Positions 7,532-29,680 of a DNA stretch of 32,000 nt are shown here, piece by piece. The stretch spans positions 3,330,001-3,362,000 of the forward strand of contig NC_011979.1 of the NCBI RefSeq assembly GCF_000022265.1, in the 5' to 3' direction. The notes beneath the pieces are model-generated. The model ran no database searches and had not been told where the DNA came from. It saw nothing but the letters and a program-made list of their open reading frames with translations. How positions within the stretch are numbered: the stretch's first letter is position 1; the number at the start of each line of letters is the position of its first letter. The position numbers and the translations under genes are program-made. The DNA comes from Geotalea daltonii FRC-32. GTDB lineage: Bacteria; Desulfobacterota; Desulfuromonadia; Geobacterales; Geobacteraceae.

Positions 7532-7578
7532 GAATGCTGCTGAACGATCACGAAGCAAAAGAAACAGGAGGAATATCA

Positions 7579-7872
7579 ATGCAGTGTCAAACAGTACTTC
7601 CCGGTGCCGAGTGTACCTTTTGGGGGAAACAGGGTTGTGTATTTGCTGAAGGCTCTTGCCAGATTGTGGTTGAGAATTGTGAGGGTTGTGAAAGGATTGT
7701 TGACAGCAGCATCGGCAAGGTCTGCAGCGCTTATCCCGCTCCCGAAAAGAAATGGTCAGCCGGCTTGTGCAACTTTGCCACTCATGTGAAGGTTGAGATA
7801 AAGAGCGAAGAAACCAAGGTCAACCCGCTCAAGGCATCCAAGAAAGCTTCCGGCGGTGGCAAGAAGAAGTAA
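7579..7872 (+). CDS. Small Cys-rich protein with Lys-rich tail (PxxKW-like family)
   Basis: I place the start at ATG 7579 ([12 protein letters not shown]...) with AGGAGG 7 nt upstream; the track starts at 7534. The protein is 97 aa with 8 Cys in the first 64 residues, a PEKKW motif, and the C-terminal tail [13 protein letters not shown]. It resembles what I recall NCBI calling the PxxKW family cysteine-rich protein. Confidence 0.7.
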
Positions 7873-13170: not shown

Positions 13171-13533
13171 TTATTGCAGAGCTTCAGCAAGTTTTGGAGC
13201 TTCCCGGCGCAGGTAAAAGCGACCTTTGCCGAAGTTCCCGCCACCGGTGATGACAAGGAGGACAAAAAAATCTTCGTTAATCACTCTGGCAATAGCCGTC
13301 GATAGCTCCGTGTTAATGGACACCTCCTGCAGCAGGCCGGATTTCAGAACTTCAACCGTCCCCTTAACCTCCTTCAGCACGGCCGCGTATTCCGCTGTCA
13401 AGAGCTGCAAATCAAAGGGGTTTTCTTTTTTAACAAACTCATCGATTGCAATGCCGTCATAGCCCATGACAACAGCGCCAACGGCCCCCTCTACACTGTC
13501 GACCATCGTCTGCAAGATGTCCTTGAATGGCAT
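13171..13533 (-). CDS. Roadblock/LC7 (MglB-like) domain protein
   Basis: I place the start at ATG 13533 ([33 protein letters not shown]...). GAGGAGG lies upstream, and the ATG shares its A with the TGA of the upstream TPR gene (TGATG). Roadblock pattern: [18 protein letters not shown] ... [18 protein letters not shown]. Confidence 0.72.
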
Positions 13534-14504
13534 CAACGCCTCCTCTGGATGTTTTCGAGCCATCCTTCCAATGCGGCAACAGGGTCAGAATCATTAGAAA
13601 CAGCTTCTGAATGCTGTTGTGAAGTATTGTCCGGGACAAATTCCACAAGACCTGTTGATAAAGTCTCTACAGGCTGTTGCGCCTCTTTCTCTTGAACTGC
13701 CACGGCTTGCCTTATTTGCAATAAACGCCTTTCATAATGTTTATTGCCAGGCTCGCTTTTCAGCAGTTCCCGGTAAATGGAGAGAGCGGATGGCAGGAAA
13801 CCTTGAGATACATAAAGTTCGGCCAGGGTAGCAGTTTTAAGAGGATCTTTCCGGTCGGTCTCGCTTTCCATGCCAGTTGATAATTCAACTTCATCGGCAG
13901 CATTTTTTTCCAGATGATCGATAATTTCTTCGGTCAGCTCTTCTATAATTTCTACATCATCAAGGGCCAGCTCGCATTCCAAAGCAGTTCCTTGAACAAC
14001 GTCAGTGTCAAACGAAAAAGAGCTGTCTGCAGGCGATCCACTGGAAACGTCTACAGATGAACTGTGGCCGGACTGCAGGGAACTGAGCAGATCCCGGCTC
14101 TCCTTGTCATCGGGATTGAGTGACAGCAGCATCTGCAATGATTGTTTAGCAGAAACCTTATCTCCTGTCTCAAAATAAAGCTGACTCAAAAGCTTTTGCG
14201 CCAGGTGATTTTCAGGAGTCGCATCAATGACTTTTTCCAGAGCAGCCCTGCTTTCCTCTTTCATGCCTTTTTCATAATAAGCTCGTCCAAGAGCCATAAA
14301 TCCGCCAATGTAGCCGGGATGCCTGTCACATCCTTTACTGGCGACAGTAATAGCTTCATCCAGCAGGCCAAGCTTGCGGTAAAGGTCGGCGAGTGGTGCG
14401 AAACAAAATGATTTGGGATCCTTAGCCAGCGTTTCTTCATATTTACCGATGTCAGCCCAGAAGGAAAGCGTATCCTGATCCATTGTCAGTCCCCTATTTC
14501 GCAT
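13533..14504 (-). CDS. TPR-repeat protein with acidic disordered linker
   Basis: 323 aa with several TPR-like helical pairs (LADLYRKLGLLDEAI, LGRAYYEKGMKEESRAALEKVI, LSQLYFETGDKVSAKQSLQ, LAELYVSQGFLPSALSIYRELL). A Ser/Asp/Glu-rich stretch separates them. An alternative start is ATG 14483, 2 nt after the aroB stop. Confidence 0.7.
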   Translation of the reverse strand: MRNRGLTMDQDTLSFWADIGKYEETLAKDPKSFCFAPLADLYRKLGLLDEAITVASKGCDRHPGYIGGFMALGRAYYEKGMKEESRAALEKVIDATPENHLAQKLLSQLYFETGDKVSAKQSLQMLLSLNPDDKESRDLLSSLQSGHSSSVDVSSGSPADSSFSFDTDVVQGTALECELALDDVEIIEELTEEIIDHLEKNAADEVELSTGMESETDRKDPLKTATLAELYVSQGFLPSALSIYRELLKSEPGNKHYERRLLQIRQAVAVQEKEAQQPVETLSTGLVEFVPDNTSQQHSEAVSNDSDPVAALEGWLENIQRRR

Positions 14505-15611: not shown

Positions 15612-16793
15612 TCAGAAGTTTTTCAGATATTCCAGATAGCCTGCATAATTGCGCTGCATCTCTTCTATGGAATCACCGCCGAACTTTACCATAAAGGCAT
15701 CGGCAAGTTCAATGGCCAATACCGATTCTGCAACCACCGATGCGGCAGGAACGGCACAAACATCGGACCTCTCCACGGTGGCTTCGAAGGGTTCTTTACT
15801 GACGATGTCCACGGACCGTAGCGGCTTGTAGAGGGTAGGAATAGGCTTCATGGCAGCTCTCACCAGAATATCCTCACCGTTGGTTATCCCCCCTTCAATA
15901 CCGCCAGCGTTGTTCGTCAGCCGGTAATATCCGGTCATGCTTCCTTGGGAAGCACGGGACTGGTCATAAAAGATTTCGTCATGGACATTAGAACCTTTCC
16001 GGGCAGCAGCTTCAAAACCGAGGCCGATTTCGACCCCCTTGAAAGCCTGGATACTCATCATGGCCATGGCGATGCGGGCATCCAGCTTCCGGTCCCACTG
16101 GACGTGACTGCCCAATCCAGCGGGAACCCCGGAAGCGATGACCTCTACCACCCCGCCGACCGTGTCACCCGCAGCTTTTACCTCGTCGATAAGCTTTTTC
16201 ATCTCTCCTTCGACAGCACTGTCGCAAGTATAGAGTTCTGATTTTGCGATGGTGGCACGCAGTTCCGCGGGGCAAAGCTCAGGCCGCTTGGCCTTGATCC
16301 CTCCCAGTTCAGCCACATACCCGCATAAATATATTTCGAAATGCTGGAGGAGTGCCTTAGCAACAGAACCAACAGCAACACGAACCGCTGTTTCCCTGGC
16401 GCTGGAGCGCTCCAGAATATTCCTTACGTCTTTATGGTCATATTTCATGGCGCCAGGCAGGTCGGCATGCCCAGGGCGAGAACGGGTTACATGAATATTG
16501 TCATCCCTGAACCGTTCCTGGGGAGACATCTTTTCCTGCCAATTCGTCCAGTCCCTGTTTTTCACACAGAGAGTGATGGGAGAGCCAATGGTTTTCCCCC
16601 AACGGACGCCAGACAGAATCTCCACCTGGTCCTTCTCAATGGCCATCCTGCCGCCACGGCCATACCCCCCCTGCCGGCGGGCAAGGTCTACATTGATCGA
16701 TTCTTCTGATAGTTTGAGACCGGCAGGAATTCCTTCGATTATAGCGGTCAGTTGCGGACCGTGGGATTCACCGGCTGTTAAGTAACGGAACAT
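15612..16793 (-). CDS. aroC: Chorismate synthase
   Basis: 393 aa beginning [13 protein letters not shown], with later motifs [10 protein letters not shown]-like ([13 protein letters not shown]) and GGISNG-like ([11 protein letters not shown]). Confidence 0.95.
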
Positions 16794-16821
16794 TGTGGCT
16801 CCAAATCCGTAGAATAATTTT

Positions 16822-16855
16822 AAAAAAGAACGCCCACCCGGAACGGATAGGCGTC
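16822..16855 (-). terminator. Hairpin + U-tract ending the xre-pilMNOPQ-lipoprotein transcription unit
   Basis: Minus-strand RNA forms GACGCC-UAU-CCG-UUC-CGG-GUG-GGCGUU followed by CUUUUUUAAAA. It lies 50 nt after the stop of the 1044-aa gene and only about 28 nt before the aroC ATG. The stem is interrupted, so strength is uncertain. Confidence 0.5.
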
Positions 16856-16905: not shown

Positions 16906-19900
16906 TTAAATCAAATCGGTACTTTTTCTTTTATATAATATAGTGCCAGCAAACATAGCAGCTAAACTAAGTAAAAGTGCATAGTACTTAACAGCAAAAA
17001 TAAGGGGCGTAAGAGCCAAACGGGTTATGACTCTTAACATTTCATGCTCAGCAATAAAATCAGCAATCGGCGGACTTGTAGCATAATAGAACTTTACGAA
17101 GGCTTTACCAAGAGCATTTTTAAGAAGGATGTTATCCCGGAAATTTCTCAGCACTACAACGTGAGGGTCAAGATAGCTGCCATAGGCTGCCGTTGCGATA
17201 AAGCACCCGCTTTTGCCACCTGAAGGCGGTGGATTGCTGTCTAATGAACCAGTCCCTGTTCCGGTACCTGTTCCGGTACCTGTTCCTGGATCTGTTCCAG
17301 CTCCAGGTTGTGTAGAACCAGTCCCCGCAACATTAATCGAGGTTGAAAGAGACTTGTCTGTACTTATAGTGAGAGTTTGACCGGGATCTGGACCCGATGC
17401 AGAGGGTGAATATTTGATAGTTATGATCTGTTGACTGCCTGGCGCCATCGCAATGGGAAATGTGAGATTTTCGACTATCGAGAATGGTGCAGTTAAACCC
17501 GTAATAGAGGTGATATTGTAAGAGACTGAGCTGTTGTTGCCAAGGGTCAAGGTCAAGTCCTTCGTTTTGCCGACTTCAAGTATCTGAAAATCGAGGGTGC
17601 CGTTATTCGTACCATCATTTTCCTGCACTGTCATTGTGGGTGGAATGCCAATTCCGGAAAGATTGACGGTTCTGTCGCCTGCATCACTTCTGATAACGAA
17701 GTTACCGGTGAAGGTGCCGCCCGCAGTTGGGGCAAACTTGACAGTAAGTGTAGTTTCAACTGATGAGGCAAGGGTCAACACACTTGCATCAGTACAACTG
17801 CTTAATTCAGCAGGGATATTTTCAATACTGAACGGCGAACCGGGTAACGGCTCAATACAGTTGATGGTAAGAGGAATATCTCCAGTATTTTTTATTTTGA
17901 ATGTTTGTCTGCCTGTCTGGTTGGCGGTGACTTGGTTAAAATCAATTAGAGCAGGAGCCAGTGAGACATTAGTTTCGCTGAGGAGAGTCAGCTGGGGCTG
18001 GCCCAAAGAGAACCTTTGTGCATGGATATCTGCAGCATTAGTGTTAACTGCTGGCAAGGTCTGTTGTGTGCGCGCATCCTTCCACATGGCAAGGAATTGC
18101 CTGCCACTTGCGTCATTGGCGGAATTGTAAGCGATTACTGGCGAAAGCTGACTGCCGGGCGCAGTAGAGATGGAATAATTAGTTCCGCGTAAAGTTCCTT
18201 CCGTGTCAATATATTGACCGAAAATATCGAGATTCTCTGAAGACTGGGAACCATTACGGCCATCCTGCCATATCACAAAATACCTTTGCAGTACAGAATC
18301 ATAGGTAATATAAGGACGAGTCTGCCTTGTAGCGGCAACATTCGTATCTTGTGAACCATTTGCATCTGTGTCCTGGTAACTGATTATTGAGTTGATGTTA
18401 TAGAGGCCACCGCCTGATGATACGAGCTGTCCATAAATTTTGGTATTGGAACCGTCCCTTAAATCCTCCCAAACAACTAAAAATCTTTTGTTTGGTTGAT
18501 CAAAACCGATAGCTGGGTAGTTGGCATTCGAGGTGTTTGAGCCGTCAAATCGCATAGATTGGATGTTGGTTTGTTTGACGTTTTTGTCAAAAATTCCGTA
18601 GATGTGCTGCAATCCATCATCATAGGCAGACACCGTGGCTTTGGCAGTCACCGGCTCTCCTACGTCACAGCCTTTACTGTTGTTGAGGTCATCGCAGCTG
18701 CATACAACTTCAAGCTTTTGCCTGTTCCCTTCCCAAGCCAGCAACGTTTCTGAGGAAGTTGTGTCCGATGCGGCCACCACATTGTTAATATTAGTGAAAA
18801 ACTCGTAGGTATAACTGTCCGTCAGGGCAGCGGGAGCGTGAGCAATAAGCCTGTTGGAACGGGTAGCCTTATCCCTAACAATGTCGGCGCCTACCGGATT
18901 TCCAGAGCCATTCGAGAGACCGGTTGGCATTTCAGCAAGAGTGGCCTCATTCAGCATCACATAACCGGTAAAATTCGTGTCGCCAGTTGTATAATCGGTC
19001 TTGGCAAAACCGAAACAGGACTCTGAGATAAGGCTTTTTACATCCCTCGACTCAGTCCAGACGATCCAGAACCTTTGCCGGGTGCCGTCGTAGGTAATTT
19101 TTGGCGACTTCCGCGACAATAGCCGGTCACCCACGGTTGCGGTACTGGGAGTAACAGAGAACGTTTTATATATGTAGGATACCGTGACCTGCTGATTCAA
19201 TGCGGGAGGCACATCAAAAAGAATGGATAAGCTGCCAATATTGTAATTTATTGTGCCAGATCCCCCCGTGCCTGATATGCCACCGTTTCCGATGGTGTCA
19301 TTCAAGATAATACCGCCAGCTTTAACAATAACAGTTGTCGGTTTGACAGGTCTGTTCAAGCTTCCGGTAAAAGATTGTGATGTACCGTTACCAATGGCAA
19401 CAAGTGAGTCAGTGACAGCAAGTTCAGTAGTCACAATTGTAGGACTTTCCTCTAGTAAGCTGCTGTATCCAATTGCAGTACCCAAACTCGGCGCAGGGGG
19501 GGTATAGCCGCAGGTACCAGCCGTCGGGAATGATGTGATGGGGGCAACATAGACATATCCCCCTTCACCCTCATCGACAAAACCATTGCCGTTAAGGTCG
19601 CTAACCCTGGTATCCTGCCATGTGATAACAATCTTATCTTGAGTCAGTGAATAGGCGGCGGTTGGAACCGTCTGATTGCCTGGGGCATTGATCACAGGAA
19701 AAACAGGGCCGCACAGCGTGCCATCGGGGTTAATAAACTGTGCATATATATCCGTGCCGGTAGTATTCCTGTTACGCCAGTCCTCCCATACGGAGAAGTA
19801 GATATTCTTTCCTTCAAGGTAGATTACCTGAGGGTTCTGCTGATCGTCTGCAGCGTTGGAGACAATAATTTCACTCCCCTCAAGTTTCGCCAGCTTTTTC

Positions 19901-20040
19901 CCGGTAGCAGATATCTTTTCTGAGCCGATGACACCCTGTGCATTTTTTCCATTGTCGGCACCACAGCCGAAGATCAAACTAAAGCTGGTTAATATCAACA
20001 ATTTCACTAACAATCTATGCAAAGACATTCTCTCCTCCAT
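16906..20040 (-). CDS. Giant predicted surface lipoprotein: lipobox, ~7 W-x-[DE]-x-R repeats (propeller-like), two Ig-like domains, (GT)n linker, [11 protein letters not shown]-terminal domain with TM helix
   Basis: 1044-aa ORF. The signal peptide ends in the lipobox LIFG-C (Cys26). An alternative start is ATG 20028 with GGAGG 5 nt upstream. The repeat core is [FL]-[VI]-[VI]-W-x-D-x-R...DI[YF][GA]Q. Residues about 695-905 resemble ASH / choice-of-anchor-D type beta-sandwiches ([23 protein letters not shown]; [20 protein letters not shown]). The tail runs from Cys946: [28 protein letters not shown]...[12 protein letters not shown]..., then a hydrophobic helix and KRKSTDLI. Confidence 0.85.
17251..17305 (-). 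repeat. Short tandem repeat (about 12-nt unit GGTACCTGTTCC and variants) encoding the (Gly-Thr)n linker
   Basis: The plus strand reads agtccctgttccggtacctgttccggtacctgttcctggatctgttccagctcc. This translates on the minus strand to [20 protein letters not shown]. Confidence 0.7.
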
Positions 20041-20067
20041 AATTAGCTCACCAGACCTGATCCTATG

Positions 20068-20655
20068 TTATTGTGCTGACGTTTCGGCCCTGTCAGCAAA
20101 GGCTACGCTCATATTGGTAGAGAATTCCTGACGTGTACCAGTGCCACCGATTTCGACACCACTGAAAGTAATAGTCACATAATACTCATAAAGTGTACCG
20201 GAACAAGGCTGCAAATTATAGTCGGAAACGAGCTTGGACTTCAGAATTTCCGGGGCCACCGGCACAGGTATTAATGCAGTACCAGAGGTTATAACGATAC
20301 CGACTGGATAAGGTTGGGCGAGGATGGCAGGAGACACTGCATTCTTAGGCGTATAACTTACAGTAACAGTATCTATTCGGACAGGTAAAGGCGACATTGT
20401 CAGATTACGGTACGGGGTTGCAGCCACGTCAACATCTACGGAGTCGGTTTCGTATGCTCCGCCGGAGGTGGCACTGGTGGGACAGGTATTTCCTGTAATC
20501 ACATCGGATTCGAGCCTGACCGTTTGTGGTTGGGCTGTCATGGTAACGGTAGTAAATTCACCAGCCCCTCCGCCGGCATTCTGACTGCCGCATGACGACA
20601 GAAGAAAAAGAAAGCTTAAAAATACAACAGACTGAATACCCATACATCTAAACAT
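20068..20655 (-). CDS. Uncharacterised small lipoprotein (195 aa) directly downstream of pilQ
   Basis: The signal peptide ends in the lipobox LLSS-C (MFRCMGIQSVVFLSFLFLLSSCGSQ). GGGGGAG lies just upstream of ATG 20655, which is 10 nt after the pilQ stop. The mature part is Thr/Val/Pro-rich and looks beta-rich, with two further Cys. I recognise no family. Confidence 0.75.
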   Translation of the reverse strand: MFRCMGIQSVVFLSFLFLLSSCGSQNAGGGAGEFTTVTMTAQPQTVRLESDVITGNTCPTSATSGGAYETDSVDVDVAATPYRNLTMSPLPVRIDTVTVSYTPKNAVSPAILAQPYPVGIVITSGTALIPVPVAPEILKSKLVSDYNLQPCSGTLYEYYVTITFSGVEIGGTGTRQEFSTNMSVAFADRAETSAQ

Positions 20656-20665
20656 GCACTCCCCC

Positions 20666-23401
20666 TTAACTCACAATTTTAGGTGTTATGAAAATCAACA
20701 GCTCATTCTTTGATTTGTTTTTGGTGTTAGACTTGAAAAGCCACCCAAGCAATGGGATGTCCTGCAAGAAAGGAACTCCTTTGTCGCTTTCGGTGTCGCT
20801 GTCTACGTAAATGCCACCGATTACAGTCGTCTCACCATTTTTAATAAGAAGTTCTGTGGTTGCCTCTTTTTTGTTGATAGGAGGAGGAGAACCGGTGCCG
20901 GCAGAGTTATTGGATGCCTTGATCTTCATACCGATACTTCCATCAGAGGTGATATGGGGCGTGACCTCCAAAGTCAAAGCCGCTTCAACAAACTCAGTCT
21001 TAGTCCCTTCAGCAGAGGTTGTCTGATATGGAATAGATGCACCCTGCGAGATCTTTGCCGGTTTGTTGTTGAGCGTCACCACCCGCGGTGTGGACATTAT
21101 CTTGATCTGATCGGCAGTAACAGCGGCAGAAAGACGCATGTCAAGCTGAATATTGCTGGCAAGCTTACCGAATGACATGCCAACGGCAGCTCCTGGCCCA
21201 GAGGTACCTGAAGTGGGGGCTATTGCAACCTGTCCGCCAAAACCTGTATCAAGCCGGCTGATACCGGCAACAGATGCAGACCCGTCTATGTAATGAATTC
21301 CCCATTGCACCCCCAGATCTCGGACAAACGAAGTGCTTGCCTCGACAATCCGGGCCTCGATCATGACTTGCTTTTCCGGCGTATCAAGGCTTTTTAGAAG
21401 CATTCTCATGTCTTCAATTGCAGTTGTGATGTCCTTGACGATTACACGGTTGGTGCGTGCATCGGTACTTATGATACCACGATCACTTTTAAGAGTTCCG
21501 AACTGTGTTGCGATATCGGTGACAGCTGCGTAATTGACATCAAAAATCTCCGTACGCAACTCCATCCCTCTTTCACGGGCTTTCTTGGTAGCCATTTCCT
21601 CGTCAGCCTGGGATTGCATTTTTGCCTTTGGCTTGATTTGGACGATATTCCCTTCTTTCAACATACCCAAACCCTTAGTATCAAGAATTACGTCCAGAGC
21701 CTGATCCCATGGCACGTTAACAAGCTTGATACTGATGGTCCCTGTAACATCGTCAGCTATAAGGAAATTAAGGTTACTTACTTCTGCAATAAGCTGGAAG
21801 ATTTTACGTATATCAGCATCGGAAAACTCAAGGGTAACTTTTCTGCCTGAATATACCTTTTTCGGTTGTTGTTTTGAAACGACAGATTTTGGAAGTTCAC
21901 TAGTATCTGACTCTTTTGATGGTGATGCCAGCAATTCATCCTCTATTTTGGAAGAGATAGGAGCTGCCTTTTCCTTAACTTGACCGGATACCACTGCAGG
22001 AATAACTGGATTCTTCACTTCAAAGAGGTATAAATTCCCTTCTTTTCGATCAGAAAACGGGCTCTTGTTCCGGAGTTTTACCAGAATTCTGGCACTGGTA
22101 CCGCCTGCTACCTTTACCTGATAAGGTGTTACATTAAGAACCGAGCTGGCAAAGGCCTTGGTATCAAGAGTCCTTTGAAGTTTCTTGGGTAGTTCACAAT
22201 TTTTTAAGCTGAGGAGTATTCCTTTCGATGTTTCAGCCGGTTTGTCAATACTGCACACGCCAGCGGTCTTGATCTCTATTCTGGAAAATCCATCAACAAG
22301 TTTAAAATCAATGGATTCAATCGAACCTTTTTCAACATTGCCTGCTTTCTTGTTTCCAGAGCTTGATTTTAAAGTATCCGGTTCGACCGCTTGTGGCTTG
22401 GCTACAGTTTCTGCCCCTGATTGGGAAAACGATATGCTCAGCCCGGCAGCGGACTTTTCGATCCGGTAAGGCTCAATTTTTTCTTTCACTGAGTCAAAGA
22501 CAATCCGTACTTTTCCAGGAGAGATACCAATCCGGGCCTTTGCAATACCGAAGCGGTCTACGGGAATGGAGTTAGATTTTATAGAATTATTGATCTCGAA
22601 GAGGTCGACCACCAAGCGTCCAGGCTTATCCAGCTTAAAGGAAGTAAAAGTAGCCGGACCACCGGCAATTGACAATTCGATTTTATCATTCAGTACCTTA
22701 ATATCGCCAAGTGTCTTTGGTGCTCCTGATTCATTTTTATCATCGGCTGTAGCAGTGAATGAACTCTCTTTAGCCATCTTGTTATTTTCTGTGTCTGAAA
22801 CCCTGGGAGCAGTAGAGCCATTAACAATATCGTCCGGAGCAGCACCTGGTTCAGATTTTACGCCAACTTTTGCATTAGCATAATCATCGGCCGTTGTGTT
22901 TTTGGGCTCAGTCTTAGCTGACTGATCTTCTACCATTCTAGCTGTTTGTTCTTGAAGCTGCTTTGGTGTTAGGACAACATTAAGCTTTCCTTTGTCATTT
23001 GTATCTGTTTTGACAGAAAAATCGGTATCGGCTTTCAGATCTATTTCAACTCTGCTGAGGAAACCGCTGCCGAAATCCTGTCGCGTTACATTTATCCCTT
23101 TAATGTTTCCATTATCCGATACCAGTGGTTTTGTCTGCCCTGGTTCCGTTTGAGCTAGATCAATAAAAATCTTTGGGGGTTCACTTGTCTTGTAAGAGGT
23201 ATAGGTTAATGGTTTATTAGTTCGGATCTCGGCCATTGTGCCATTGTTTTTAATCTTTATTTCTTGAATCACAGCAAAAGAGTTTGTTTCAAGTAAGTCA
23301 GCATCTTGTGCTGCAACCATCTTCTTAGCACAGCCGGATACAGCCATTAAAAAAATAAGTATCAGGGTATGGCAAATGATTCTGAGTGAATTCATTTTCA
23401 T
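20666..23401 (-). CDS. pilQ: Type IV pilus secretin PilQ (three AMIN-like modules + N0/N1 + secretin core)
   Basis: 911 aa. The N0 region is KVTLEFSDADIRKIFQLIAEVSNLNFLIADDV. The C-terminal secretin block is GETTVIGGIY...KGVPFLQDIPLLGWLFK...ELLIFITPKIV. The start overlaps the pilP stop (ATGA). Confidence 0.95.
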   Translation of the reverse strand: MKMNSLRIICHTLILIFLMAVSGCAKKMVAAQDADLLETNSFAVIQEIKIKNNGTMAEIRTNKPLTYTSYKTSEPPKIFIDLAQTEPGQTKPLVSDNGNIKGINVTRQDFGSGFLSRVEIDLKADTDFSVKTDTNDKGKLNVVLTPKQLQEQTARMVEDQSAKTEPKNTTADDYANAKVGVKSEPGAAPDDIVNGSTAPRVSDTENNKMAKESSFTATADDKNESGAPKTLGDIKVLNDKIELSIAGGPATFTSFKLDKPGRLVVDLFEINNSIKSNSIPVDRFGIAKARIGISPGKVRIVFDSVKEKIEPYRIEKSAAGLSISFSQSGAETVAKPQAVEPDTLKSSSGNKKAGNVEKGSIESIDFKLVDGFSRIEIKTAGVCSIDKPAETSKGILLSLKNCELPKKLQRTLDTKAFASSVLNVTPYQVKVAGGTSARILVKLRNKSPFSDRKEGNLYLFEVKNPVIPAVVSGQVKEKAAPISSKIEDELLASPSKESDTSELPKSVVSKQQPKKVYSGRKVTLEFSDADIRKIFQLIAEVSNLNFLIADDVTGTISIKLVNVPWDQALDVILDTKGLGMLKEGNIVQIKPKAKMQSQADEEMATKKARERGMELRTEIFDVNYAAVTDIATQFGTLKSDRGIISTDARTNRVIVKDITTAIEDMRMLLKSLDTPEKQVMIEARIVEASTSFVRDLGVQWGIHYIDGSASVAGISRLDTGFGGQVAIAPTSGTSGPGAAVGMSFGKLASNIQLDMRLSAAVTADQIKIMSTPRVVTLNNKPAKISQGASIPYQTTSAEGTKTEFVEAALTLEVTPHITSDGSIGMKIKASNNSAGTGSPPPINKKEATTELLIKNGETTVIGGIYVDSDTESDKGVPFLQDIPLLGWLFKSNTKNKSKNELLIFITPKIVS

Positions 23402-23982
23402 CTGGAAATCTCCTTACTCTTCTTGGCCAATGGCAGAACTATTTTTCTGTTCTTTATACGTTTTTTCCCATCTAGATATTGTTCAGTCACTTCCAGGGAG
23501 GAGGCGGTTATTCTGGTGATGCGACCACCATTATCTCCGATCAACATACCGGTTTTAACAACATACCCCTTGCCTGTCGGGTCAATCAATAGGGCTTTAT
23601 TTTCTTTAAGCCCGGTAATGATGCCTGTAACGATAAACTTGCTGACCTCGTGGCTCTGTATGGGGAGGGCATCAACAATCCTGGTCCTGGTAGGCACAGG
23701 TGCTTTCACCGCAGCAGCCTCAGGAGCAGTAATCAAGGGTTTGAAGGGGTCTTTTTTGCTTTTGAAGACAAAGGCGCCTGTTGCTTGCCCCCCCACTTGT
23801 GATGTAGAAACGGATTTCTGCACAGCAGCACTTGGTTTCACCTGTGCTGTGGGCTGGGGCAGAGCCGGAGCCTGAGGATTAGGCTTTGGTGCCTCATCAT
23901 TCTTTTTGCATCCGCAGACAAGACAGGCGGTCATAAGACAAAAAGCCAAAACTAGAGACTGTTTATTTAGCCTTTTTTTCAT
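23398..23982 (-). CDS. pilP: Pilus assembly protein PilP
   Basis: 194 aa with a signal/lipoprotein-like N-terminus and a Pro/Ala-rich linker. The C-terminal beta-domain is FIVTGIITGLKENKALLIDPTGKGYVVKTGMLIGDNGGRITRITASSLEV. It sits between pilO and pilQ. Confidence 0.82.
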   Translation of the reverse strand: MKKRLNKQSLVLAFCLMTACLVCGCKKNDEAPKPNPQAPALPQPTAQVKPSAAVQKSVSTSQVGGQATGAFVFKSKKDPFKPLITAPEAAAVKAPVPTRTRIVDALPIQSHEVSKFIVTGIITGLKENKALLIDPTGKGYVVKTGMLIGDNGGRITRITASSLEVTEQYLDGKKRIKNRKIVLPLAKKSKEISR

Positions 23983-24562
23983 CCTTTATCTCTTTCTTGT
24001 CAAGGAAACGGAATGTTGTCGCCAGACAATTTACTTTGATAGTGGTCAAACCTTTACCTGTTTTAATTTCTGTAAAATTAACATTGGAGATATTTACAAT
24101 GCGAGGAAGCGCAGATACTGCCTGGAAGAAACTACCGATCTGATAAAAAGTTCCTGACACTGATATATCTACAGGAACCGCAGCATAGAAATCTTTGGGC
24201 TCCTCAGGTTTGGGTTTGAAAAGAAGGAACTCCAGTCCAGCACTTTTACCAGCATTTGCAATGCTTGTCAGAAGAGAGGGAATTTCCTTCTGATTAGGTA
24301 ACTCTGTCAACGCCAGTTTCAATTCGTTCTGTAATTGCTCATATTCCTGCTTGTATTTGGGAAGATTATTGGCTAGTTTCTGTGCCTCGGAAGCCTGTCT
24401 GCTTAAATCCTCAAGTTGAGTCTGCAGAGTCTTAAATTCTTTAAGCTTTGGTTGATAAAGGCCGAAAAAGAACCCGGCACCAAGTAAGCCTATAATGAGG
24501 AATAGCAGCCCAAGCTTTTGTTTGGCAGGAAGCTTTAATATCTTTTCAAACTGTGGGTTCAT
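23963..24562 (-). CDS. pilO: Pilus assembly protein PilO
   Basis: 199 aa with a single TM segment (KLGLLFLIIGLLGAGFFFGLY), a coiled coil, then a ferredoxin-like domain. It sits in the canonical operon position. Confidence 0.85.
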   Translation of the reverse strand: MNPQFEKILKLPAKQKLGLLFLIIGLLGAGFFFGLYQPKLKEFKTLQTQLEDLSRQASEAQKLANNLPKYKQEYEQLQNELKLALTELPNQKEIPSLLTSIANAGKSAGLEFLLFKPKPEEPKDFYAAVPVDISVSGTFYQIGSFFQAVSALPRIVNISNVNFTEIKTGKGLTTIKVNCLATTFRFLDKKEIKDEKKAK

Positions 24563-24598
24563 GAAAGCCCTCGGAAAGGACGCGAGCCGGCCCTTTAT

Positions 24599-25171
24599 TT
24601 ATTTTATCTTTTTATCTGGTTCGGGAGGGGCAAAGGCTGCAAGCTTTAATGTTATATCAAATCTCTTAGCTTTGGTTTTGGCTATTTCCGTTTGTTCCGA
24701 AACCTGGAGCTCCACATTGGTAAAATCAGGTATTGCCTGCAGGTTTTTCATAAGAGCTGCGATATCATCTTCACTGAAAGCAGCCCCAGAAAGTGATATT
24801 GTACCTGCAGATTCACTGTACTTGGTAAGCCATAGCTTATCAGGCACAGCATCACTAAGCATGGCAAGCCTGCTCACAGGACCTGTTTTTTCCTTTCGCA
24901 AACGGTTCAGAATGTCCAACTTCTTCTTTACTTCAGCTTGAAGCTTTTTGATATTGTCTATTTCACCAATCTTAGTCTTCAGCTGCTGGATTTCCTGTTC
25001 GGTTCTAGAGATTTCATCCTTTGCATGCGAAATCTTGGAAATAACCAGCGAGTACAGAACTGCACATACAGCCAGAGTACCTACTACAGTAATTACCAGT
25101 ATGGAAATCTGCTGTCTGGTCGTTTCCTTCTTCTTGGCTGCTCTAACCGGTAATAAATTAATTTTTATCAT
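24599..25171 (-). CDS. pilN: Pilus assembly protein PilN
   Basis: 190 aa with the conserved N-terminus MIKINLLPVR, which binds PilM, followed by a TM segment and a coiled coil. It overlaps pilM by 4 nt. Confidence 0.87.
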   Translation of the reverse strand: MIKINLLPVRAAKKKETTRQQISILVITVVGTLAVCAVLYSLVISKISHAKDEISRTEQEIQQLKTKIGEIDNIKKLQAEVKKKLDILNRLRKEKTGPVSRLAMLSDAVPDKLWLTKYSESAGTISLSGAAFSEDDIAALMKNLQAIPDFTNVELQVSEQTEIAKTKAKRFDITLKLAAFAPPEPDKKIK

Positions 25172-26220
25172 TTATCCCCAAGCCTCCTTGTCGCCAGTCC
25201 TATAGCAACAGTTACAAGAGGACCTATTTCTCTCAGGTATTCAGGATCAAATTCTTTTTGATCATACCTTACCTTCGAAAAGGGATTAAGTATTTCTACT
25301 GGTATACCCAGTTTCTGACTGACTGTTTCTGGTAACGAAGCAGATTTTGCTCCACCACCACTAAGATAAACCTTACTTATTTTGCCTTCTCCGGCAGTGG
25401 AATTATAGAAGTCAAGGGATCGTCGCATTTCAACGGCAAGTGTGTCATTTGCACGAGCCAAAACGTCTTTCAGTCTGCCATCATCAGCATCTGATTTAGC
25501 GATCTTCATTCTCTCTGCGTCTTCATTGTTAACACCAAATTGCTTTTGTATTTCCTCGTTAAACAGGGAACTACCGAGTTGAACATCGCGGGTAAACAGA
25601 GAAATTCCGTCCTTGACAATATTCATGTTCATGACGCTGGCACCTATGTTGACTAAAGCATTAACCTCTTCTGGGCTAACATCGTAGTTAAGCTCAAATG
25701 CGTTCTGAACAGCAAACGAGTCAACATCAACAACTGTAAGTCTCATGCCTGCTTCAGTGAAAACGGCCAGATAATCATTAATGATATCCTTTTTGCTAGC
25801 CACTAGAAGCACATTCATTTTGGAAGAATCAATATCATCTGGGGCAATGATCTGAAAATCTATATTAACATCGTTGATATCAAAAGGAATATATTGTTCT
25901 GCTTCCCAATGTATTTGTTCCTCAAGTTCTTCAGCAGGCATAACTGGTAAAGATATTTTTCTTATGATTACTGAGTTCCCGGAAATGGAACACGCCGCTT
26001 CTTTTGAAGTTATTTTCAGACTATCTATAAGAGTTTTGATTCCTTCAACTATTGAAGAACTGTCCATGAGAGTATTATCTACAATGGCCTCGGCGGGCAG
26101 TGGAATCAGCCCAACATTCTGCAACTGAAAGCTTCCTTTCTGCACCTTAAGCTGTACCAGCTTTATAGAACTGGATCCGATATCTACGCCAACAATATCC
26201 TTCTTTTTGGTAAAAAACAT
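25168..26220 (-). CDS. pilM: Actin-like ATPase-fold pilus assembly protein PilM
   Basis: 350 aa with the motifs VGVDIGSSSIKLVQL, IVDVDSFA-like (VVDVDSFAVQNAF) and YLSGGGAK. Confidence 0.95.
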   Translation of the reverse strand: MFFTKKKDIVGVDIGSSSIKLVQLKVQKGSFQLQNVGLIPLPAEAIVDNTLMDSSSIVEGIKTLIDSLKITSKEAACSISGNSVIIRKISLPVMPAEELEEQIHWEAEQYIPFDINDVNIDFQIIAPDDIDSSKMNVLLVASKKDIINDYLAVFTEAGMRLTVVDVDSFAVQNAFELNYDVSPEEVNALVNIGASVMNMNIVKDGISLFTRDVQLGSSLFNEEIQKQFGVNNEDAERMKIAKSDADDGRLKDVLARANDTLAVEMRRSLDFYNSTAGEGKISKVYLSGGGAKSASLPETVSQKLGIPVEILNPFSKVRYDQKEFDPEYLREIGPLVTVAIGLATRRLGDK

Positions 26221-26239: not shown

Positions 26240-26440
26240 TTATTCTTGAAATACTTTATCTTTGTCCGATAGTGAAAATCCGAGTGCCAATATTATTTTT
26301 CTCTTGGTTTCCATACGACATTCTTCCCCACGCTCTATACGATCTATGGTAACAGGAGAAACGCCGGCCAATCTCGCTAGCTCAGCTTTGCTCATCAATC
26401 GCTGTTCACGTATTTTCCTGACACAGTTCTTTACTCGCAT
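26240..26440 (-). CDS. Small XRE-family helix-turn-helix protein, first cistron of the pilM operon
   Basis: 66 aa. The HTH_3 pattern is IREQRLMSKAELARLAGVSPVTIDRIERGE. It ends 19 nt before the pilM start. Confidence 0.8.
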   Translation of the reverse strand: MRVKNCVRKIREQRLMSKAELARLAGVSPVTIDRIERGEECRMETKRKIILALGFSLSDKDKVFQE

Positions 26441-26501: not shown

Positions 26502-26571
26502 GAAATTAATCTCTTTTCTATAAAAATAAATACAATTATATATAATTATGTCATTTGACTACTTTTGACGC

Positions 26572-26613
26572 AAAAAAACCGGATCGCCTATTCATGATAT
26601 TTCGGCAACCCGG
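26572..26613 (-). terminator. Intrinsic terminator (riboswitch expression platform)
   Basis: Minus-strand RNA forms CCGGGUUGCC (26613..26604), a 15-nt loop, then GGCGAUCCGG (26588..26579). That is 10 bp including two G.U, followed by UUUUUUU (26578..26572). The 5' arm is also the conserved 3' box of the aptamer. Confidence 0.75.
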
Positions 26614-26680
26614 CTGTCTGCTTGAGACCCTATAGGCTTTCCGCCCCATTCTCGCGAATGGTTTAGTATTATCGTTATCG
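26598..26680 (-). promoter_or_regulatory. GEMM-I class (c-di-GMP-I / 3',3'-cGAMP) riboswitch aptamer
   Basis: The minus-strand RNA is CGAUAACGAUAAUACUAAACCAUUCGCGAGAAUGGGGCGGAAAGCCUAUAGGGUCUCAAGCAGACAGCCGGGUUGCCGAAAU. Aligned by hand to the Vc2 aptamer as I remember it, it shares four elements. These are AAACC plus a hairpin CCAUUC-GCGA(GNRA)-GAAUGG, the G-C-x-x-AAAGCC junction, a second hairpin, and the GCCGGGUUGCCG box (Vc2: GCGGGGUUACCG). Confidence 0.65.
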
Positions 26681-26859: not shown

Positions 26860-27498
26860 CTAGTAAGCATAAAGGACCGAGAGGCGAGCACGTTCCTTTG
26901 CATTGCTCTCGGCCTCACTTTCCACCTCGATACGATATATATAAGGAAGATGTGGTACCCCTATCAGCGAACCACCTGGGTTGTACGCCACTCCGATCGG
27001 ATCGATAAGCTTTTCTCCATTTTCAGCACCTCCGCTGGATGTATCAGTATTGCCAGCAGTAGTGTCGACTATCTTGGAATTAACGACAAAACCGGGCATG
27101 GACGGCATCCCTTTCAAATGGAAGGTGACATCTGGGGACACTTTGGCATTAGGGTCCGAGTTCGATGTGATGCAATTCGTCCATTCCGATGTGGAGAACC
27201 TCAATTTCTGTTGCAGGCAAGCGTTGGTTACTGGGACATCAAGATTAATTCCGCTAAATTCTGACATAAGTCTATTTGTAGAGTATCCGCCAAAAATTTT
27301 AGGAATGATATCTTTAGCAAATACCTGAACGCCGCCATGTGCAGCTTCTAGAGATGTTTTGTACCTTTTGTTGGCAGCGGATATGTAGGTCCCTTGAGTT
27401 ATGTAATATAGAAGAGTTAGACATATGACCAGGGAAATCAGCGTCAGCATAAGAGCTGTCACTAGGGCCACACCATTTTCATTTCTAAGACACCTCAT
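26860..27498 (-). CDS. pilX: PilX-like minor pilin (PilX_N type, no Glu5)
   Basis: 212 aa. The N-terminus MRCLRNENGVALVTALMLTLISLVICLTLL matches the G-[AV]-x-L-[IV]-x-A-L hydrophobic PilX N-domain pattern. AGGTGG lies upstream. It is the last gene of the minor-pilin operon. Confidence 0.72.
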   Translation of the reverse strand: MRCLRNENGVALVTALMLTLISLVICLTLLYYITQGTYISAANKRYKTSLEAAHGGVQVFAKDIIPKIFGGYSTNRLMSEFSGINLDVPVTNACLQQKLRFSTSEWTNCITSNSDPNAKVSPDVTFHLKGMPSMPGFVVNSKIVDTTAGNTDTSSGGAENGEKLIDPIGVAYNPGGSLIGVPHLPYIYRIEVESEAESNAKERARLSVLYAY

Positions 27499-27574
27499 TT
27501 CACACCACCTTTATGCTTCTCCTGAGGAAATCACTCTCTATTTAAAAAAGACATCAAGTTTACAACGTCTGAAC

Positions 27575-28759
27575 CTAATCCAGGTTAGTCGGCTTGATGG
27601 CAAGCGTATATATCTTCCACCTGTAATTCTGCCAATCAGGACCAAATCTGGCTGCCAAGTCAGCCGCACTCCAGATTCTGCCGAAAGAGACGGTAAAGGC
27701 AGGATCACCTACCACTAATGCCTTGCTTGTATCATTCACTGGATAGATAAAGTTTCTATCCCTGCCTCCTTCATGGGCAAGTATATAGACTCTAACTCTC
27801 TTCAAGGACTCTCTGATTGTCTTGGCAGTATAGCCATCGAGGTTCTTAGCATAGGTGATGTTGCCATCGTTCAAAAGATCGAGCTCGAACGCCACTTGCA
27901 TATCACCTACGCAGTCGAGAAGTGGGTACTGAACGAATCCACCTGTAGTATGTACGGCTACGCCCTTGTAGAGTACTCCTGTTCCTGGATTACAGGAAGA
28001 AGGAACATTGGAAGGCCTGTTTACATAAAAATCAGCACGGTTATATGGCATCCTCAATGGCTTATCATCGATACCATAGACAGTGAAAATCTGTGACGGG
28101 GTGACTGGTTTATAAGCGTCAGTCGCCGGGAACAGGCCAGCATAACTATAATAAAAGGCGGCACCGTCATTCGCCAGTTGTCTATCAATGGTGCCGGCTT
28201 TTTGGTTGGTGATGTTGATAAGGGTAACAACATTCTCACCATTGACAAAGTTATCGCTCAGGGTGCTCCACTGTTTTATATAGCTCTCGTTGGTGGCAAT
28301 CCCACCTGATTCATTTACGGAATAGTTGACGAAACTCCATTTTTTACTGGTTGCATTAATGGAGGCCATCGTAGATTTGACCACAAGATAGTCAATGCCA
28401 GTGGTCGTGCTGGTAGCGCTGGCTATGGCTTTTGGAATTTTATCAGGGCCCAGGGAAACCATATCGTTGAATGAATTAGAATCAATGCCATCGGCAAGAA
28501 AGCCTGCAGTAACATCGACTTCGGGATATGTCAATGGACTGCGGAAGGACCACGGAAGACCATATCCTGCATGTTCAATATCAAAGCGCATCAGGTTAAG
28601 ACCCACTTGCCCCTCGATCTGGGTCTCCACCGATCTGGACTGCTGTCCTGCAGTCTGAGTGATCTTTTCGAAGGCCGAAGAACTTATCATGATGACCGTA
28701 ATGAAAATAGCCATCACAACCAAAAGCTCTACAAGCGTATAACCTTTCTTATTCGGCAT
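27575..28759 (-). CDS. pilW: PilW-like minor pilin (large, 394 aa)
   Basis: I place the start at ATG 28759 (MPNKKG/YTLVELLVVMAIFITVIM) with GGAGAA 7 nt upstream; the track starts at 28807. It has a class III prepilin signal with Glu5. Confidence 0.72.
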   Translation of the reverse strand: MPNKKGYTLVELLVVMAIFITVIMISSSAFEKITQTAGQQSRSVETQIEGQVGLNLMRFDIEHAGYGLPWSFRSPLTYPEVDVTAGFLADGIDSNSFNDMVSLGPDKIPKAIASATSTTTGIDYLVVKSTMASINATSKKWSFVNYSVNESGGIATNESYIKQWSTLSDNFVNGENVVTLINITNQKAGTIDRQLANDGAAFYYSYAGLFPATDAYKPVTPSQIFTVYGIDDKPLRMPYNRADFYVNRPSNVPSSCNPGTGVLYKGVAVHTTGGFVQYPLLDCVGDMQVAFELDLLNDGNITYAKNLDGYTAKTIRESLKRVRVYILAHEGGRDRNFIYPVNDTSKALVVGDPAFTVSFGRIWSAADLAARFGPDWQNYRWKIYTLAIKPTNLD

Positions 28760-28809
28760 GATACGTTCTCCGACATAATTTGTCACTACAGTGCCCCATA
28801 TGGTCACTA

Positions 28810-29220
28810 TTACTTGGATTTAATGGACACAACCTGATGATGGAAAGAGGATATATTCTTAAATTTCCATCTTATATCGACAATCAACTGCTTCGAGTCC
28901 CCAGTCAGGTTTGAAACGATCTGTTTGACCGCATAGGTACTACTAAAACCAGGTCTCCTGCTGGAGACTTGGGTGGTTTTCTCTGCGCTGGTAAGCATGG
29001 CAAAAGGCTTTGCTTTCATGGCATGCATGGTGACTTCCCCTATTTCCACAGCCTCGTCCCGCATCTGATTCCGCAGGTTGTGTTCGGTAGCGAGGATCAC
29101 TGTCTGCAACAGCCCAAGAAGACCGACTGTCATAATCAAAATGCTGACCATAACCTCAATAAGGGTAAACCCCGAATTATCTGGTTTTGATATCGTCTGC
29201 AACACAAGCACCTCCTTCAT
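28810..29220 (-). CDS. pilV: PilV-like minor pilin
   Basis: Prepilin motif ...SKPDNSG/FTLIEVMVSILIMTVGLLGL. The start is ambiguous: ATG 29220, or GTG 29205 / TTG 29202, which lie 5-8 nt after AAGGAGG. The track start at 29289 is unlikely. The gene overlaps the fimT 3' end. Confidence 0.78.
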   Translation of the reverse strand: MKEVLVLQTISKPDNSGFTLIEVMVSILIMTVGLLGLLQTVILATEHNLRNQMRDEAVEIGEVTMHAMKAKPFAMLTSAEKTTQVSSRRPGFSSTYAVKQIVSNLTGDSKQLIVDIRWKFKNISSFHHQVVSIKSK

Positions 29221-29680
29221 CCCGCTTACCCAGTTGAATCCGGGCTGCCGACAGTACAATGCTGTCAAGGGCTGCGGGATTACCGCCATCTAAAATGCAG
29301 ATGCTCCTCCCACCTAATCCAGGATTAGATAATAAACCATAGGAATCGAAATTTAATTGCCCGGAGGAGCCATTCCAGATCATGGAATACTTAAAATCTT
29401 TCTTAAAAAGGGGAGGTACAGAAACATTGCTGGAGGAATAAACAGAATAAGCCGAGGAGCTTATGATCACCGAGCGGGGTTGCCTAGTGAACATGGCTTG
29501 CGACCTCACAGTCATTATATCTCCATGAAGCATGCGGACCTGGCTCTCAATAGATGATTTCCTGGAGTAATGGGTGAACTGCAATGTGGCAATGGATAGC
29601 AAAACTCCGGCAATAGCCATGACTATGAGCAATTCAATAAGGGAAAATCCATGGCTTCGCATCTTAGTGCTCCTGAACAT
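29177..29680 (-). CDS. fimT: FimT/FimU (GspH-like) minor pilin
   Basis: Prepilin motif MRSHG/FSLIELLIVMAIAGVLLSIA followed by the GspH-type segment SIESQVRMLHGDIMTVRSQAM. An alternative and perhaps better start is ATG 29662, with AGGAG 8 nt upstream and 1 nt after the pilY1 stop. Confidence 0.8.
   Translation of the reverse strand: MFRSTKMRSHGFSLIELLIVMAIAGVLLSIATLQFTHYSRKSSIESQVRMLHGDIMTVRSQAMFTRQPRSVIISSSAYSVYSSSNVSVPPLFKKDFKYSMIWNGSSGQLNFDSYGLLSNPGLGGRSICILDGGNPAALDSIVLSAARIQLGKRDEGGACVADDIKTR

Follow-up and report, generated by a model that had tools for sequence, protein, structure and literature searches.

Two lipoprotein genes behind the pilQ secretin gene of Geotalea daltonii form a candidate surface-display cassette

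Between the secretin gene pilQ and aroC of Geotalea daltonii FRC-32 lie two further genes encoding lipoproteins, given here the working names lip195 and lip1044. They fall within a 32,000-nt stretch of DNA (hereafter the window), which was analyzed as a whole and in which an earlier, sequence-only reading had proposed that they prolong the type IV pilus (T4P) unit pilMNOPQ at its 3′ end. The locus is real, conserved and uncharacterized, and its products are of known kinds, namely a secretin-operon accessory lipoprotein and a C-terminally tagged surface protein. The interpretation preferred here, to which we give a probability of about 0.42, is that the pair constitutes a PilQ-linked surface-display cassette at the 3′ end of an operon composed of a helix-turn-helix (HTH) gene and pilMNOPQ. 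It starts from what was observed of the two genes, namely how they are built, their operon-like arrangement, the domains they encode, their synteny and their hypervariability.

Two genes at the end of the pilMNOPQ unit

The unit lies on the minus strand in the order riboswitch, HTH gene, pilM, pilN, pilO, pilP, pilQ, lip195, lip1044, aroC. The genes pilM to pilP (23398-26220), recognized as open reading frames (ORFs), match related-locus orthologs with PilM_2, PilN, PilO and PilP Pfam matches. The secretin gene pilQ (20666-23401) matches TIGR02515 at 464 bits and AMIN in three stretches; the N-terminus of its product, encoded at 23330-23401, carries a lipobox (AVSG-C) of the kind also seen in PilQ of six related loci (L001, L002, L004, L006, L014 and L016). 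Next come lip195 (20068-20655; 195 aa) and lip1044 (16906-20040; 1044 aa), known from their ORFs and translations, and then aroC (15612-16793; family match E 1e-123). The two extra same-strand genes reported earlier between pilQ and aroC are therefore present, with gaps of 10 and 27 nt. The first gap, GGGGGAGTGC, places a Shine-Dalgarno sequence immediately 3′ of the pilQ stop, and the GGGGG box behind this stop recurs in L001, L002 and L004. The second gap is counted from the annotated lip1044 start at 20040. The true start is probably four codons later, at the ATG at 20028 (M5), because a GGAGGAG box stands 5 nt upstream of it and at least 90% of homologs have this Met too; the gap would then become 39 nt.

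The end of the unit is equally well marked. Its first strong intrinsic terminator (16819-16855, minus strand) is found 3′ of lip1044, where a 12-bp stem with seven G-C pairs (16855-16829) is followed by CTTTTTT, and a consensus scan detects no terminator-like site in the pilQ-lip195 or lip195-lip1044 gap; the earlier claim that termination occurs only after both genes thus holds. A scan for sigma-70-like sites (14 found, 19 expected) places none in the intergenic gaps, the site at 26501-26474 being upstream of the HTH gene. Across the nine loci examined, the gaps between pilQ and the small gene and between the small and the large gene are short and unstructured, except for one of 129 nt in L006, a locus whose small gene may have a miscalled start. 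A strong hairpin stands 3′ of the large gene in all nine, L008 included, and has a clear T run in most. Together with the short gaps and the Shine-Dalgarno sequence behind pilQ, this bears out the proposed 3′ extension of pilMNOPQ. Full-length homologs with the same lipobox and length exist in many genomes for lip195 and for lip1044, which marks both as genuine genes and not chance ORFs, and there is good support for regarding them as laid out as distal genes of the unit. Their co-transcription with pilMNOPQ is suggested by this operon-like layout.

The small lipoprotein and its family

The lip195 protein consists of a signal peptide, a lipobox (LLSS-C22), a Gly-rich tether and an immunoglobulin (Ig)-like beta-sandwich at residues 33-190, with C58 and C151 invariant among close homologs. 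Its lipobox and that of lip1044 (LIFG-C, at C26) are both present as first described, lipidation itself being a prediction. The AlphaFold2 (AF2) model of lip195, with a predicted local distance difference test score (pLDDT) of 80, is all-beta except for one short helix and has the form of an Ig-like beta-sandwich. Foldseek relates this model only to generic sandwiches (arrestin, macroglobulin MG, Calx-beta, ApaG and chaperone folds), none with E <1e-3, and a sequence profile search of the PDB returns nothing specific. The protein is 100% identical to a database entry, ‘lipoprotein, putative’, of G. daltonii FRC-32, and neither it nor any of 16 diverse relatives has a Pfam, NCBIfam, PADLOC or PHROGs match.

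A profile search against 1.84 billion representatives gathers 173 clusters of lip195 relatives, 107 of them at E <= 1e-10 and nearly all of 170-220 residues; among 138 full-length members, 99% retain the Cys of the lipobox. Named members come from Geotalea, Geomesophilobacter and various metagenome-assembled genomes (MAGs), where they are called ‘hypothetical’ or ‘lipoprotein’, and two (P0009 and P0078) are evidently misnamed ‘ribosomal protein L31’ and ‘zona occludens toxin (predicted ATPase)’. Judged by its sequence relatives and predicted fold, lip195 is the founder of an unnamed family of Ig-like lipoproteins of about 190 residues.

Could lip195 nevertheless be a familiar secretin accessory in disguise? 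A tetratricopeptide repeat (TPR) pilotin of the PilF/PilW/Tgl type is rejected, as there is no TPR match and the model is all-beta apart from its one short helix. A PilP paralog is rejected too, since an hhalign comparison of the family with nine PilP sequences aligns the signal peptide only (probability 36%). Any other known pilotin or named family lacks library, PDB-profile or Foldseek support, and pilotin folds are absent among the listed top 50 Foldseek hits. The TsaP type is marked by LysM, for which neither lip195 nor lip1044 has a match. The view that neither protein is a known T4P component stands after comparison with TPR pilotins, TsaP/LysM, FimV, PilP and PilY1. By the Lol rule of Escherichia coli, a lipoprotein without Asp at +2 is expected in the outer membrane; because lip195 has Gly, not Asp, after the lipobox Cys, outer-membrane sorting is predicted for it.

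Architecture of lip1044

The predicted domains of lip1044 give good support to its having the anatomy of a sorted surface protein, in agreement with the adhesin- or receptor-like architecture first ascribed to it. Its lipobox, LIFG-C26 (I-F-G-C), is atypical in the F at -2, a GC/SC lipobox being kept in homologs, and is followed by a disordered tether (residues 27-51). The bulk of the protein is a beta-propeller region with inserted beta-domains (residues ~52-690; 17971-19887, minus strand; AF2 pLDDT ~90), in which seven W-x-[DEGS]-x-R blade motifs occur at residues 85, 141, 328, 436, 524, 591 and 653. Residues 690-905 (17326-17973, minus strand) form two choice-of-anchor D / ASH (HYDIN-like) Ig domains, identified by NF012200 (63.6 bits against a cutoff of 45, in two stretches) and by Pfam (PF22073 53.6, PF15780 43.4 and PF22544 40.7); in a PDB profile search this region matches HYDIN, CFAP65 and CEP192. 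A low-complexity Gly/Thr/Pro linker follows at residues 911-945 (17206-17310, minus strand; TGTGTGTGTGTG...PPPSGGKSG), with AF2 pLDDT <50.

The C-terminal part (residues 946-1044; 16909-17205, minus strand) is a CFI-box-CTERM domain, made up of C946-FIATAAYGS, predicted helices, a hydrophobic helix and KRK. NF041770 scores 106.4 bits (cutoff 40) over residues 946-1014 of 1044 and also matches in L001 and L002. The CFI motif starts at G945-C946, and G-C-FIATAA is present in the family consensus. The hydrophobic helix (~1013-1031), directly ahead of KRK, is the only one in the protein besides the signal peptide. In L002 this tail is 79% identical while the rest of the protein differs. It has no TIGR03901 or NF033191 (MYXO-CTERM / JDVT-CTERM) NCBIfam match, and literature searches for CFI-box-CTERM and CFIATAA found nothing. 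The protein was correctly set apart from the known T4P components at the outset, but it is not wholly unrecognizable, since NCBIfam names both its tail (CFI-box-CTERM) and its Ig domains (choice-of-anchor D).

Other identities proposed for lip1044 fare less well. A PilY1-like adhesin is rejected because there is no PF05567 match and BLASTP against the PilY1 of the window itself gives E = 1. The suggested mineral-binding surface role finds no supporting evidence, and a cytochrome or metal-binding function is rejected for both proteins, as neither has a CXXCH motif.

Conservation of the pair

Related loci were retrieved via lip195 homologs or via lip1044 homologs; the more diverse family alignments offer no conserved stretch to search with, a genome scan with the close lip195 alignment gave two loci, and of the metagenome scans the first gave none and the second four short contigs. 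The order HTH-pilMNOPQ-lip195-lip1044 is found in eight independent loci (L001, L002, L004, L006, L007, L012, L013 and L017), including Geotalea sp. SG265 (L001), a relative near G. uraniireducens (L004) and Geobacter sp. OR-1 (L007), and is kept while PilQ identity to the window drops to about 40-50%. Accession numbers in G. uraniireducens Rf4 (lip195-family member ABQ26005, aroC ABQ26008) agree with this layout. The Desulfuromonadaceae MAG locus L008 has, behind pilQ, genes for an unrelated 124-aa lipoprotein and a lip1044 homolog, and aroC is absent downstream; as the linkage to pilQ survives there without aroC, the module travels with pilQ and not with the aro genes.

Linkage to pilQ extends well beyond loci of this type. 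The Flexistipes-type loci L014 and L016 each have, 17-20 nt behind pilQ, a gene of the family whose product is ~25% identical to lip195; the next gene is lpxB, and a large gene is missing. PilM and RtcB of L014 fall in 90% clusters with Flexistipes sinusarabici (Deferribacterota). L018 again has pilQ followed by a family member. The second gene differs in L019, where it encodes a Big-like lipoprotein, and in L020, where an unrelated 574-aa lipoprotein precedes aroC-aroK-aroB. Altogether pilQ is the immediate 5′ neighbor of the lip195-family gene in 12 of the 13 loci with a visible upstream gene, and the distance is 10-45 nt in Geobacterales and Deferribacterota. The association with T4P genes on which the first proposal depended is thus supported by synteny. 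Literature searches on genes downstream of Geobacter pilQ found nothing relevant.

The small and large proteins are also tied to one another. In an Aquificaceae MAG (L015), the lip195-family gene overlaps by 4 nt a gene for a 1041-aa lip1044 homolog. This homolog shares the lipobox and the propeller start with lip1044, contains four choice-of-anchor D domains and ends in a short Cys-membrane helix-RK tag whose layout is, by eye, tripartite. A miscalled fusion (P0202) contains a choice-of-anchor D/U protein adjoining a lip195-like gene; the JDVT-CTERM-like tag of this protein scores 23 bits, short of the cutoff of 27. As far as gene order can tell, the lip195 family is tied to pilQ across phyla and to lip1044-type proteins even where pilQ is missing, an association that is new here; with ties on both sides, lip195 would be the hinge that joins the large protein to the secretin.

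The N-terminal region of lip1044 has 54 homologs, mostly in Geobacteraceae, Desulfuromonadaceae and Thermodesulfobacteriota MAGs. The distant relatives in L009-L011 align at 40-63% query coverage and have ordinary signal peptides and no C-terminal tag. Each is preceded by a ~390-aa lipoprotein with weak LpoB/GNA1162-like similarity (6638-7942 in L009, 6772-7923 in L010 and 6624-7796 in L011). This may be another system, in which the same propeller-Ig protein has a different partner. A pilin-like N_methyl gene also lies close by in L009.

Divergence and exchange of types

Identities of PilM and PilQ correlate closely over eight loci (Spearman 0.92), and over the same number those of lip1044 do not track PilQ (Spearman -0.17). 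Between the window and L001, PilM is 89%, PilQ 79% and AroC 90% identical; the figures are 41-44% for lip195 and 33% for lip1044, which has 1539 residues in L001. For both genes, L001 and L002 are of a second cassette type, and between these two loci each protein reaches its highest identity (lip195 54%, lip1044 59%). L004 and G. uraniireducens Rf4 have AroC in one 90% cluster and lip195 proteins that are 39% identical. Such joint type switching at a fixed locus, together with fast divergence, is typical of exposed surface determinants and suggests that the pair may be one.

The tail class of lip1044 is also lineage-dependent, the CFI-box being swapped in L015 for the short tag described above. 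The name ‘choice-of-anchor’ denotes just such an exchange of the C-terminal anchor between orthologs, and it is on account of this exchange that lip1044 is read as a probable sorted surface protein.

A model for PilQ-linked display

What might such a cassette do? In the model preferred here, Sec would export lip195 and lip1044 and both would be lipidated. The C-terminal helix would hold lip1044 in the inner membrane, with processing at or near Cys946, and the protein would then reach the surface through, or beside, the PilQ channel, driven by the pilus machinery. On the side of the secretin or the outer membrane, lip195 would act as its partner or adaptor. Once displayed, the propeller and Ig module would serve adhesion or recognition and be subject to diversifying pressure. 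Each part of lip1044 would have its place in this scheme, as an N-terminal lipid anchor, a non-catalytic propeller and two Ig domains for display or binding, a linker and the CFI-box tail. Co-transcription, lip1044 processing, the PilQ route and the adhesive role are all steps that we infer from the locus and its domains.

A more specific form of the model can be drawn for the type IVa pili (T4aP) of Geobacterales, in which lip1044 would be a dedicated, linked cargo, processed at its Cys tag and pushed through PilQ, and lip195 an adaptor of a new class. A role as a secretion apparatus has been proposed for Geobacter T4P (Gu et al., 2021, cited in PMC12307469). We regard this specific form of the model as doubtful.

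Several points count against PilQ-linked display in either form. Contact of lip195 or lip1044 with PilQ is a presumption from the position of their genes, and the very fast divergence of lip195 is unexpected for a protein docking on a conserved secretin. The CFI-box tail differs from the classical tripartite tag in that about 65 residues, some 55 of them in predicted helices, separate Cys946 from the membrane helix. We know of no processing enzyme for such a tail, and no CPBP, rhomboid or sortase gene occurs among the genes of the window. An N-terminal lipid and a C-terminal membrane helix in one protein make the route of lip1044 doubtful. As for synteny, the L015 pair has no pilQ within 1.1 kb upstream, the distant lip1044 relatives in L009-L011 are not near pil genes, and the 173-cluster lip195 family was sampled through 14 loci biased to Geobacterales.

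Alternative explanations

How else could such a pair have come to lie behind pilQ? A variable envelope cassette might hitch-hike at a permissive pilQ-aro junction, co-expressed with pili but neither binding PilQ nor using it for export, and lip1044 would then stay anchored in the envelope or surface by another route. This account is possible, if on the whole improbable. It would explain why the second gene varies from lip1044 proteins of type A or B (1014-1820 residues) to the 574-aa lipoprotein of L020, the Big-like one of L019 and none in Flexistipes, and why cassette type does not follow PilQ phylogeny; the L015 pair without pilQ and the distant homologs unlinked to pili fit it as well. Chance insertion, however, would hardly place lip195-family genes 10-45 nt behind pilQ in 12 of 13 loci and in two groups. 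The linkage moreover persists without aroC (L008) and without the large gene (L014 and L016), and the Shine-Dalgarno sequence directly 3′ of the pilQ stop, with no terminator between the genes, also speaks for a closer connection. A purely structural role is a different matter: lip195 would be a PilQ-associated outer-membrane lipoprotein (a stabilizer, a gate or plug, or an aid to alignment of peptidoglycan and outer membrane) and lip1044 a decorating partner, periplasmic or tethered to the outer membrane, with neither of them cargo. The linkage of lip195 to pilQ across phyla, even where no large gene follows, would suit this role, as would its predicted sorting and the lack of a TPR pilotin in the window, where the nearby TPR protein has no signal peptide. 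Yet liposecretins such as HxcQ can be self-piloting, and because PilQ here carries its own lipobox it may need no separate pilotin. Nor would a structural accessory be expected to fall to 39-44% identity between close relatives in which PilQ is still 79%, or AroC at least 90%, identical. The profile-profile comparison separates lip195 from PilP, known pilotin folds are missing from its listed top 50 Foldseek hits, and the domains and tail of lip1044 are typical of sorted surface proteins. We consider a purely structural role unlikely.

Far less probable than either is an enzymatic function, with lip1044 as a surface or periplasmic sialidase-like glycoside hydrolase acting on exopolysaccharide and lip195 as its carbohydrate-binding helper. 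The idea arises from Foldseek, whose best matches to the lip1044 propeller are bacterial sialidase propellers (2ber, 1eut and 2w20; E 5e-10 to 7e-8), but these have low TM-scores of 0.3-0.43 on target. Asp boxes and the RIP motif are absent from lip1044, as is any BNR, GH33 or sialidase Pfam match, so that a sialidase is rejected and a resemblance of fold is all that is left. The conserved W-x-D-x-R residues are best read as structural rather than catalytic, because the same blade motif is repeated seven times. Display linked to PilQ remains the preferred, if tentative, interpretation.

Comparison with known systems

Proteins of the GlyGly-CTERM and MYXO-CTERM kinds undergo processing at the inner membrane, after which they depend on a secretion system of type II (T2SS) to reach the surface (bioRxiv 10.1101/2023.06.07.544157; PMC11980579). 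With the MYXO-, JDVT- and GlyGly-CTERM proteins, such as TraA of Myxococcus and VesB of Vibrio, whose surface localization relies on a secretin-based type 4 filament machine, lip1044 shares large size, Ig-like domains, a disordered linker and a tagged C-terminus in which a membrane helix and a basic tail come after a conserved Cys (or GG), and its L015 homolog carries just such a short Cys-membrane helix-RK tag. In contrast to theirs, the tail of lip1044 is a longer CFI-box of 69 residues with helices before the membrane helix, it is joined to a protein with an N-terminal lipobox, and there is no CPBP or rhomboid gene nearby. The linked secretin is also PilQ of a T4aP system and not GspD of a T2SS, and for lip1044 both processing and route are suppositions.

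A second parallel is the pullulanase PulA, a surface lipoprotein dependent on the T2SS secretin (as cited in PMC11980579). Like PulA, lip1044 is a large, N-terminally lipidated protein encoded beside secretin genes and proposed to exit through the secretin. PulA is, however, an enzyme without a C-terminal tag, whereas lip1044 lacks an enzymatic signature and its machine would be the pilus system.

For lip195, the comparison is with secretin accessory lipoproteins (PilF/PilW/Tgl, PulS/AspS, MxiM/ExsB, PilP and TsaP), which it resembles as a small lipoprotein of a secretin operon with a predicted place in the outer membrane. It differs in having no TPR, LysM or PilP-HR region, in its all-beta, Ig-like structure with generic fold matches and in its hypervariability, and PilQ of the lineages that have lip195 is already a lipoprotein. 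As regards the exchange of types, Pseudomonas has variable accessory genes (tfpO/tfpW-Z) beside its pilA alleles, which modify the pilin. There too, the accessory genes have a fixed place in the pilus locus and change their type without regard to the core machinery, but they stand beside the pilin gene, whereas those described here stand beside the secretin gene and encode envelope lipoproteins.

Significance

Whether Geobacter type IV pili are mainly a secretion device is debated, and a candidate cargo gene within the secretin operon opens the question to testing. If true, the cargo reading would amount to direct genetic evidence for a second role of a T4aP secretin, as a T2SS-like route of surface display, and would provide a first function for the CFI-box-CTERM signal. 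CFI-box-CTERM is without a published function, and a locus with lineage-dependent tail swapping offers a handle on this domain. The lip195 family, whose roughly 173 clusters span three phyla and which has neither a Pfam or NCBIfam model nor a literature, is a candidate for an accessory still missing from T4aP secretins in bacteria other than the well-studied Proteobacteria. Strain-level hypervariability points to a likely surface determinant, which could bear on attachment, kin or partner recognition and phage pressure in subsurface metal-reducing communities.

The riboswitch and neighboring genes

A cyclic di-GMP (c-di-GMP)-I riboswitch aptamer (26601-26677, minus strand; 48 bits) lies at the head of the unit and is conserved in five of eight related loci (L001, L002, L006, L012 and L013). 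A terminator hairpin overlaps it (26570-26621, minus strand; folding free energy -25.6 kcal/mol, z -4.5, U7), with its 5′ arm inside the aptamer; because of this overlap with a strong terminator, the element is probably a transcriptional switch. The 66-aa XRE-type HTH gene (26240-26440, minus strand) opens the unit in every related locus, and the sigma-70-like site at 26501-26474 (minus strand) is located between the riboswitch terminator and this gene. The earlier suggestion that the riboswitch co-regulates lip195 and lip1044 is therefore accepted in part: the aptamer is real and conserved, but with its own terminator, the HTH gene and a sigma-70-like site all ahead of pilM, control of the whole HTH-pilMNOPQ-lip195-lip1044 unit is only plausible.

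Directly upstream of the riboswitch, a minor-pilin cluster (26860-31877, minus strand) encodes three N_methyl proteins, a 212-aa protein that has no family match and a PilY1-propeller protein, and the same arrangement is found in related loci. Downstream of the cassette, L001 (15357-15671) and L002 (16280-16609) have a small DsbC_N-like lipoprotein of 104-109 residues between the large gene and aroC, which is absent from the window. Between aroB and aroQ are genes for a cytoplasmic TPR protein of 323 residues (13533-14504, minus strand) and a 130-aa protein (13171-13563, minus strand), the L007 ortholog of which has a weak Roadblock/LC7 match. The TPR protein was considered as a pilotin and rejected because it has no signal peptide. 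The two are conserved in all Geobacter-type loci and could be a pair of the polarity or GTPase-regulator type beside pilus genes. Farther away, between phosphoglucomutase-like and NUDIX genes, a DUF6811 protein (7534-7872, plus strand; 130 bits) is encoded that is unrelated to lip195 and lip1044.

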